A stretch of 64,000 bases of DNA, from sequence record PV467749.1; one strand, 5' to 3'. Position numbers and translations under genes: made by a program. Below are positions 2,984 through 3,560 of the stretch, piece after piece. Position 1 is the first letter of the stretch. The number at the start of each line of letters is the position of its first letter. Below the pieces are notes generated by a model, which worked only from the letters and a program-made list of their open reading frames with translations, was not told the DNA's origin and did not search any database. The stretch comes from a phage.

Positions 2984-3487
2984 TTATTTTACTTTGACAG
3001 TACAGGTTACCTTCTTACCCTGGAATTCAACTTTCTGGACATACGTTACGTTACCCAAACGACGAACGAATGATTCCATTGCATCAACGTTGTTTTGGAT
3101 AACAGTTGCGTTTGTGCCGCGACCTGTAGTTTTCATTACAATGTGTACTTGCTTACCTTCTTCTAAGAACTTACCTGCACTTTTCGCTTTAATAAGCAAA
3201 TCATGCTCTTGAGTTCCGAAGTTGAATTGAATCTCTTTAGTACTAACAGTGTTTTGACGCTGTTTCTTCAAAGAGGCTTTTTCAGCCTGTTTCAATTCGT
3301 ATTTGAATTTGTTCAGATCAGTGATTTTAACAGCAGGTTCATCACCTGCTCCAATAACCACCAAATCCAGACCTTCAGTTTCTGCTAAAGCAAGTGCTTT
3401 AGAGATTGCCATGACTTCACTTTTACCTTCCGTAACTAGACGGACAGTTTTTGCGGTGATTTCGTTATTGGCAATAATAGATTTCAT
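2984..3487 (-). CDS. infC: translation initiation factor IF-3 homolog
   Basis: 167 aa; collinear with bacterial IF3: N-domain ([31 protein letters not shown]), K-rich linker, C-domain ([31 protein letters not shown]...GRG); ATG start with GGAG RBS. Confidence 0.8.
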
Positions 3488-3531
3488 GTAATAAAAGCTC
3501 CGATATGGTTTTAATGTTCAATTCGATAGTA

Positions 3532-3560
3532 ATTATAGCTAAGAACTAATGTTCTGTCAA
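3532..3560 (-). promoter_or_regulatory. consensus sigma70-type promoter (TTGACA-N17-TATAAT) for the IF3 gene
   Basis: Plus-strand attata at 3532-3537 and tgtcaa at 3555-3560 give TTGACA, 17-nt spacer, TATAAT on the minus strand, about 45 nt upstream of the ATG at 3487. Confidence 0.6.

Follow-up and report, generated by a model that had tools for sequence, protein, structure and literature searches.

The minus strand of the phage sequence PV467749.1 (the whole stretch analyzed, 64,000 nucleotides, is called the window below) carries a gene for a homolog of translation initiation factor IF3, and the span from 2984 to 3560 corresponds exactly to its coding sequence, ribosome binding site and promoter (Table 1). 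The gene is followed by genes for a ClpS-like protein, a KTSC-domain protein and a virion structural protein.

Table 1. Features of the IF3 locus and related elements in the window
Feature	Position	Strand	Remarks
IF3 homolog CDS	2984..3487	minus	167 aa + stop; ATG start
IF3 N-terminal domain, residues 7-71	3275..3469	minus	Pfam IF3_N; fold match 6o6d, 1tif
Lysine-rich inter-domain linker, residues 58-82	3242..3316	minus	Modelled long helix; Y63 = E. coli Y75
IF3 C-terminal domain, residues 82-165	2993..3244	minus	Pfam IF3_C; fold match 1tig
C-domain β2-α2 loop K-T-T-G-R-G, residues 119-124	3116-3133	minus	Clade-specific
-35 TTGACA	3555..3560	minus	Spacer 17; overlaps stop of upstream 64-aa ORF (3557..3751)
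-10 TATAAT	3532..3537	minus	With TTGACA, 12/12 match to sigma70 consensus
Shine-Dalgarno GGAG	3498..3501	minus	10 nt upstream of ATG (3487)
Predicted 5' leader, ~38 nt	3488..3525	minus	Transcription start inferred
ClpS-like gene, 181 aa	2425..2970	minus	13 nt after IF3 stop; phrog_15940
KTSC-domain protein	1805..2350	minus	Pfam KTSC, 6.2e-14; third cassette member
Virion structural protein, 523 aa	244-1815	minus	phrog_18596; downstream of IF3
Second perfect TTGACA-N17-TATAAT	49453-49481	minus	32 nt upstream of ORF 48323-49420
HNH/homing-endonuclease-like ORF, 365 aa	48323-49420	minus	phrog_681, 1e-76

The ORF encodes a two-domain IF3 homolog

A sequence-only reading of this DNA, which gave no strand for the gene, had proposed an IF3 homolog collinear with the bacterial factor over both domains and the linker, and we found that the ORF does encode a two-domain IF3 homolog. 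Both Pfam domains were detected, in the order N then C and above their curated gathering cut-offs (IF3_N, 4.4e-16 and 59.3 bits, cut-off 26.9; IF3_C, 3.5e-12 and 46.5 bits, cut-off 34.8). The protein scored 100.3 bits on the NCBIfam infC equivalog TIGR00168 (cut-off 60), and residues 1-167 aligned to profile positions 1-167 of 168 in PHROG 9787, a family described as 'translation initiation factor' (3.7e-66, 223 bits). With the phage protein as query, solved IF3 chains were matched at 1.7e-16.

The predicted structure leads to the same assignment. An AlphaFold model built on 30 homologs (mean pLDDT 82) consists of an N-terminal domain, a long helix and a C-terminal domain, with the elements E-E-H-E-E, helix 58-79 and E-H-E-H-E-E; this arrangement of an α/β N-domain and a βαβαββ C-domain is the IF3 fold. 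When the model was compared with the PDB using Foldseek, all of the top 22 matches were bacterial or mitochondrial IF3. The isolated domains superposed closely (C-domain 1tig, TM 0.82, rmsd 1.9 Å; N-domain 6o6d, TM 0.82, rmsd 1.9 Å; 1tif, TM 0.74), and ribosome-bound full-length IF3 (5lmn_X) was matched at E = 1.7e-13 with a TM of 0.57. The two outcomes that the sequence-only reading had named as refuting it, no significant match to IF3 domain profiles and an unrelated predicted fold, were thus both ruled out. The Pfam, TIGR00168 and model results agree on both domains and on a lysine-rich linker of normal length: the distance between the equivalents of Y75 and K94 is 21 residues, the commonest linker length in the family. 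The pI of the phage protein is 9.5, equal to that of E. coli IF3.

Residues required for IF3 function are retained under purifying selection

The phage IF3 proteins form one clade in a neighbor-joining tree that includes 150 family representatives. We compared residues between 28 members of this clade and 139 other IF3 representatives, using E. coli numbering throughout. The clade retains essentially every position that is at least 85% conserved in the IF3 family, including N16, I19, A42, A46, D52, L53, P63, K72, Y75, K94 and E95 as well as D106, K110, F117, G121, G132 (its equivalent lying in the phage C-domain) and R133. Among the residues common to the window protein and E. coli IF3 are all of these, L53 aside, and also R25. 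R25, Y75, D106, K110 and R133 (R16, Y63, D96, K100 and R123 in the window protein) are each kept in 26-28 of the 28 clade members, and R66 of E. coli corresponds to K54 in the phage N-domain, which we counted as a retained equivalent. Three of these residues have documented roles: R25 contacts the elbow of the initiator tRNA and is required for fidelity (PMC9723500), Y75N is the infC362 fidelity mutation, and K110L abolishes 30S binding (both PMC7145577).

The gene is under purifying selection, with a dN/dS of 0.087 relative to its Sharanji ortholog; the dS in this comparison, 0.75, is not saturated. Values relative to more distant genera were 0.17-0.29, at dS of ~1.2-2.1, which is near saturation.

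The phage clade departs from cellular IF3 in the β2-α2 loop and the N-domain

In spite of a shared two-domain architecture, fold, linker length and pI, the phage protein shares only 31% identity with E. coli IF3 (infC, P0A707-type; PDB 8jsg, 2ife). We identified several specific departures. The basic N-terminal tail is absent from the phage clade, since only 6 residues precede the N16 column, compared to a family median of 9; three residues are deleted at the Q33 loop; Y70 is replaced by L; and R99, R131 and E134 are N, T and G, respectively. The last two substitutions fall in the C-domain β2-α2 loop, which reads K-T-T-G-R-G in the window protein compared to R-F-R-G-R-E in E. coli, such that the typical (although not strictly defining) motif R/K-F-R/K-G-R-E is not present in the window protein. 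Position 131 is R or K in 116 of the 139 other representatives and in 0 of the 28 clade members, while E134 is found in 99 of the 139 others and is G in 19 of the 28. NMR and mutagenesis studies have assigned the β2-α2 loop to the elements that contact the 30S subunit. With R/K131, E134, the N-terminal tail and the Q33 loop all lost, affinity or specificity could differ from that of the cellular factor. Two papers that we consulted on the altered loop (PMC5037330 and PMC8266586) contain no residue discussion in E. coli numbering that bears on it.

We considered that similar loop changes might have arisen independently in other phage IF3 genes. The ortholog in Vibrio phage 2.275.O also lacks a basic residue at 131, and this phage belongs to the same synteny group. 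The bacterial-type motif is kept in Agrobacterium phage Atu_ph07 and in an uncultured 595-kb phage, so that there is no convergence on the loop change.

These departures raise the question of whether the phage protein is an IF3 of altered specificity, that is, one that replaces the host factor with stricter or looser discrimination of start codons and initiator tRNA, or with some other mRNA preference, so that phage messages win. The concentration of clade-specific changes in the β2-α2 loop is in keeping with such a role, as are the Y70 to L substitution, the missing tail, the escape from autoregulation afforded by the ATG start (below) and the deletion of the loop bearing Q33, one of three residues that contact the tRNA elbow (PMC9723500). 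Q33 itself, however, is variable or absent in many bacteria (PMC9723500), and R25, Y75 and K110, for which fidelity or binding phenotypes have been demonstrated, are conserved. Moreover, we found no feature of the phage mRNAs that would need a special IF3, and the annotated starts in the clade are canonical. We therefore think it rather unlikely that altered specificity explains the gene. The sequence-only reading had gone further in this direction and suggested a deliberate retuning of initiation fidelity; this idea finds no direct support, because the fidelity and 30S-binding residues R25, Y75 and K110 are retained, and it is speculation.

A conserved sigma70-type promoter and an ATG start distinguish the gene from host infC

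The same reading had also pointed to a perfect sigma70 promoter and a GGAG ribosome binding site ahead of the gene, and both were borne out. A TTGACA-17-TATAAT sequence stands 44 nt ahead of the ATG, with ~30 nt between TATAAT and GGAG. In the 64-kb window, we observed 2 perfect TTGACA-N17-TATAAT sites, compared to 0.18 expected, and two such sites were reached in 1 of 100 dinucleotide-preserving shuffles. Both are intergenic and lie directly upstream of a co-oriented gene; the second precedes the endonuclease-like ORF, which may be a mobile endonuclease with its own strong early promoter. At a threshold of at least 11/12 matches, there were ten sites in the window, all on the minus (gene-coding) strand and none on the plus strand. 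Several of these at least 11/12 sites lie just upstream of ORFs, for example at 41894, 26727 and 18745.

To examine conservation, we aligned nine orthologous upstream regions, which come from at least four named genera and include two phages to which no genus is assigned. The -35 hexamer is TTGACA in 8 of the 9 phages (TTTACT in Muenster), and the -10 hexamer is TATAAT, TACAAT, TATATT or TATCAT at a constant position. GGAG is invariant in 9/9, while the spacer and leader sequences diverge freely. Hexamers that are kept while the spacer varies are a signature of selection on the hexamers. The leader of the IF3 gene is essentially unstructured: the leader and start region has a minimum free energy of -2.1 kcal/mol, a value equaled or bettered by 190 of 200 shuffled sequences. 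Judging by the promoter and leader, the phage IF3 may be expressed early and strongly, as the sequence-only reading had proposed.

We found no transcript or promoter data for IF3 of this clade in the literature, where remarks are confined to annotation. In the accessible part of the supplementary table of RpoD-like promoters for phage CBB, in which the IF3 gene is CBB_318, Porf_318 is not among the entries listed. We also noted that the conserved 64-aa ORF upstream of IF3 has its start codon (3751) within a near-consensus promoter (TTGACA-17-TATGAT; 3728-3756, minus strand). This promoter could feed the IF3 gene internally, or the true start of the 64-aa ORF may differ. Elsewhere in the window, a strong bidirectional terminator-like hairpin (8593-8623, both strands; 11-12 bp stem with T-runs on either side) lies at the junction of the minus-strand and plus-strand gene blocks.

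Expression of host infC is limited by negative feedback that depends on its AUU start codon. The phage gene begins with ATG in all 9 homologs, compared to ATT in E. coli infC, and thus AUU-based autoregulation cannot apply to it, as the sequence-only reading had argued. The context differs as well: E. coli infC belongs to the thrS-infC-rpmI-rplT operon, whereas the phage gene lies outside such an operon and has its own consensus promoter. The phage gene therefore has neither the operon context nor the AUU start of a cellular infC locus.

The IF3 gene belongs to a conserved locus of jumbo phages

Escherichia phages CMSTMSU, Turkey3 and TH47 share 99% identity with the region, and 121Q, PBECO4 and Sharanji (genus Asteriusvirus, with genomes of roughly 350-390 kb) share ~84%. 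Thus, the window comes from an Asteriusvirus-type (RaK2/GAP32/121Q-type) jumbo phage that is only distantly related to T4, and its earlier description as a T4-type phage was imprecise. Using tblastn, we found the IF3 gene in 93 phage records, among them a graded series running through Asteriusvirus, Alcyoneusvirus (RaK2, Muenster), Eneladusvirus (fHe-Yen9-04) and Mimasvirus (GAP32, CBB) and including several Erwinia, Salmonella, Serratia and Xanthomonas jumbo phages and one Vibrio jumbo phage. The gene order is conserved across at least four named jumbo-phage genera, as RNase H, Dda-like helicase, structural protein, 64-aa ORF, IF3, ClpS-like, KTSC and topoisomerase II/gyrase. Orthologs include GAP32_313, CBB_318, 121Q gp47, the PBECO4 gene and Sharanji gp294 infC (PHROG 9787). 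Identity to the window protein is 98-99% in Ecwhy_1 and Turkey3, 89% in 121Q and Sharanji, 68% in RaK2-type phages and 53-57% in GAP32, CBB and Yen9-04. The RaK2/GAP32/121Q-like orthologs have the same length, synteny, ATG start, and promoter and RBS positions, and nothing material sets them apart.

These results bear on whether the gene could be contaminating host DNA, or else a passenger that was captured recently and does nothing for the phage. There is precedent for such contamination among the database matches to 'phage' IF3. In Acinetobacter phage MD-2021a (CAKLQH020000014.1), infC lies in a cellular thrS-infC context, and in Pseudomonas phage SC_8_H2H8_2017 (MT121966.1), IF3 is at the contig end; we discarded both records as phage IF3, since they look like host DNA, and counts of phage-encoded IF3 in this collection are thus slightly inflated. 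For the gene studied here, contamination or recent host capture is effectively refuted by conserved phage synteny across at least four genera, the monophyly of the clade, the dN/dS of 0.09 and the identity to E. coli IF3, which at only 31% argues against any recent capture from E. coli.

The gene itself is already known, contrary to the novelty implied by the sequence-only reading: it has been annotated in this jumbo-phage group for more than a decade, since GAP32, most relatives' records annotate it as translation initiation factor IF-3, it has a PHROG family, and it is discussed in PMC5259590, PMC7824862, PMC7162821 and PMC11895373. Iyer et al. named IF3 as one of the translation-related genes that group 2.2 jumbo phages carry (PMC7824862), and the Sharanji paper noted that the function of IF3 in phages 'cannot be definitively stated' (PMC11895373). 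We found no functional or biochemical study of any phage IF3 in the literature. The published papers mention the gene but not the conserved promoter or the loop substitutions. The conservation of the predicted promoter across the clade, the loop alteration seen in the alignment, and the cassette described below are modest new points.

The IF3 gene shares a cassette with genes for ClpS-like and KTSC-domain proteins

Since the ClpS-like gene begins only 13 nt past the IF3 stop, the two genes are probably co-transcribed; from the IF3 gene to the start of the window, the minus strand contains no terminator-like site. The ClpS-like protein has a ClpS-adaptor core at approximately residues 70-155, an N-terminal β-rich domain of ~65 residues and a C-terminal helix. 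The single sequence did not reach Pfam ClpS. Its family profile matched E. coli ClpS at 4.3e-5, and its model superposed on the ClpS core of E. coli and Caulobacter with TM 0.87-0.90 and rmsd 1.2-1.4 Å over ~82 residues. In the alignment to E. coli ClpS, positions D36 and H66, presumably residues of the N-degron pocket, appear as P and N in the phage protein.

The order IF3, ClpS-like, KTSC is the same in A4, CBB and Vibrio phage 2.275.O, such that the cassette is conserved from Asteriusvirus out to a Vibrio jumbo phage (L010, 2515-3786). In Vibrio phage 2.275.O, a bS21 (RpsU3) gene is inserted between IF3 and a ClpS/L7-L12-like gene. In Atu_ph07, IF3 adjoins a Clp ATPase gene and topoisomerase II. 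IF3 is thus recurrently paired with Clp-system proteins. We also noted a match to an MA3 (eIF4G-type) domain in the 523-aa structural protein, which we rejected as probably due to chance (E = 0.007; 16.7 bits, below the Pfam cut-off of 23.2).

We considered that IF3, the ClpS-core adaptor, the KTSC protein and, in the Vibrio phage, bS21 might form a cassette for taking over host ribosomes. If so, the phage IF3, with its clade-specific loop and freedom from autoregulation, would displace host IF3 on the 30S subunit and bias initiation to phage mRNAs, while the co-transcribed ClpS-like adaptor, with its extra N-terminal domain, would hand a host translation component to ClpAP for degradation. 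We regard this combined scheme as improbable. Another idea is that the phage protein is a decoy or dominant-negative factor. It would occupy the 30S subunit, or sequester a host factor or toxin directed at IF3, but would not support initiation, thereby serving host shut-off or counter-defense. The low identity to host IF3 (31%) and the altered β2-α2 loop would fit a decoy, as would the conserved association with a ClpS-core adaptor, through which a host protein could be removed. However, an initiation blocker would block phage translation too, and a simple decoy would not need the domains, linker length and fidelity residues, all of which are under purifying selection. Thus, we consider a decoy very improbable.

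A working IF3 that escapes feedback is the likely role of the gene

We think it likely that the gene specifies a functional IF3-type factor, which would load onto the 30S subunits of the host and, being free of feedback control, would maintain IF3 activity for phage mRNAs. We observed homology, the IF3 fold, residue conservation, purifying selection, a conserved promoter and RBS, and an ATG start; counted on the other side are the identity of only 31% to the host factor, the lack of a tail, and the loss of the Q33 loop, R/K131 and E134. Specifically, host sigma70 RNA polymerase would probably transcribe the gene, which lies in a block of replication and nucleotide-metabolism genes, from the conserved consensus promoter, and the open leader, GGAG and AUG start would probably allow efficient translation. 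The protein would most likely bind the platform and P-site region of the host 30S subunit, like bacterial IF3, and there provide anti-association activity, faster formation of 30S initiation complexes, and proofreading of the start codon and initiator tRNA. IF3 activity could in this way stay high for phage mRNAs as host gene expression collapses.

The AUG start would let the phage factor escape the feedback that limits host infC. If the phage factor has kept start-codon discrimination, we infer that it would depress translation of host infC, and host IF3 would be progressively replaced. The messages served would be overwhelmingly AUG-initiated, as judged from the annotated relative CBB, in which 583 starts are ATG, 12 GTG and 10 TTG (96% ATG). 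This usage is compatible with many explanations and is not diagnostic, and an AUG bias of phage genes is expected from AT-rich composition and gene-caller bias alone.

The anti-association activity of IF3 suggests a further role, in recycling, rescue or relief from hibernation. In hosts that are stressed or in stationary phase, the phage factor would then serve mainly to mobilize 70S or 100S ribosomes that stand idle, so that free 30S subunits stay available. The residues for anti-association are conserved, and the relative Sharanji has genes for an S30EA/HPF-type protein, for tRNAs and for a CCA-adding enzyme (PMC11895373). However, we found nothing specific to rescue or recycling in the 64-kb window, including no tRNA or tmRNA genes, and such a role largely overlaps ordinary IF3 function, which makes it hard to separate from the provision of a working IF3. 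As an account of its own, we consider it quite improbable.

Comparison with other initiation factors and phage translation genes

The phage protein is not alone in preserving the IF3 fold at low identity. Mitochondrial IF3 (human IF3mt and yeast Aim23) is likewise a divergent factor with two domains, and mitochondrial structures were among those recovered by Foldseek with the phage model (6rw4_8 at 2.7e-10, and 8om3_d). The mitochondrial factors carry N- and C-terminal extensions, whereas both ends of the phage protein are, if anything, shortened.

In concept, the gene corresponds to the translation genes of huge phages (IF1, IF3, bS21, S1 and L7/L12) described by Al-Shayeb et al. (2020) (PMC7162821), and to phage bS21 (PMC9723584): in each case, the phage supplies a part of the initiation machinery, and a redirection of host ribosomes has been proposed. 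A virus-encoded initiation factor offers a direct handle on how large phages control host ribosomes. The conserved promoter, the loop substitutions and the ClpS-like cassette sharpen the hypotheses and leave the overall picture unchanged; the value of the phage IF3 lies in a tractable E. coli system and not in novelty. The huge phages in that survey are mostly uncultivated and have other hosts, whereas the phages considered here are in culture and have E. coli as their host, so that an idea raised on uncultivated huge phages, the redirection of host ribosomes, becomes directly testable in a tractable test bed.
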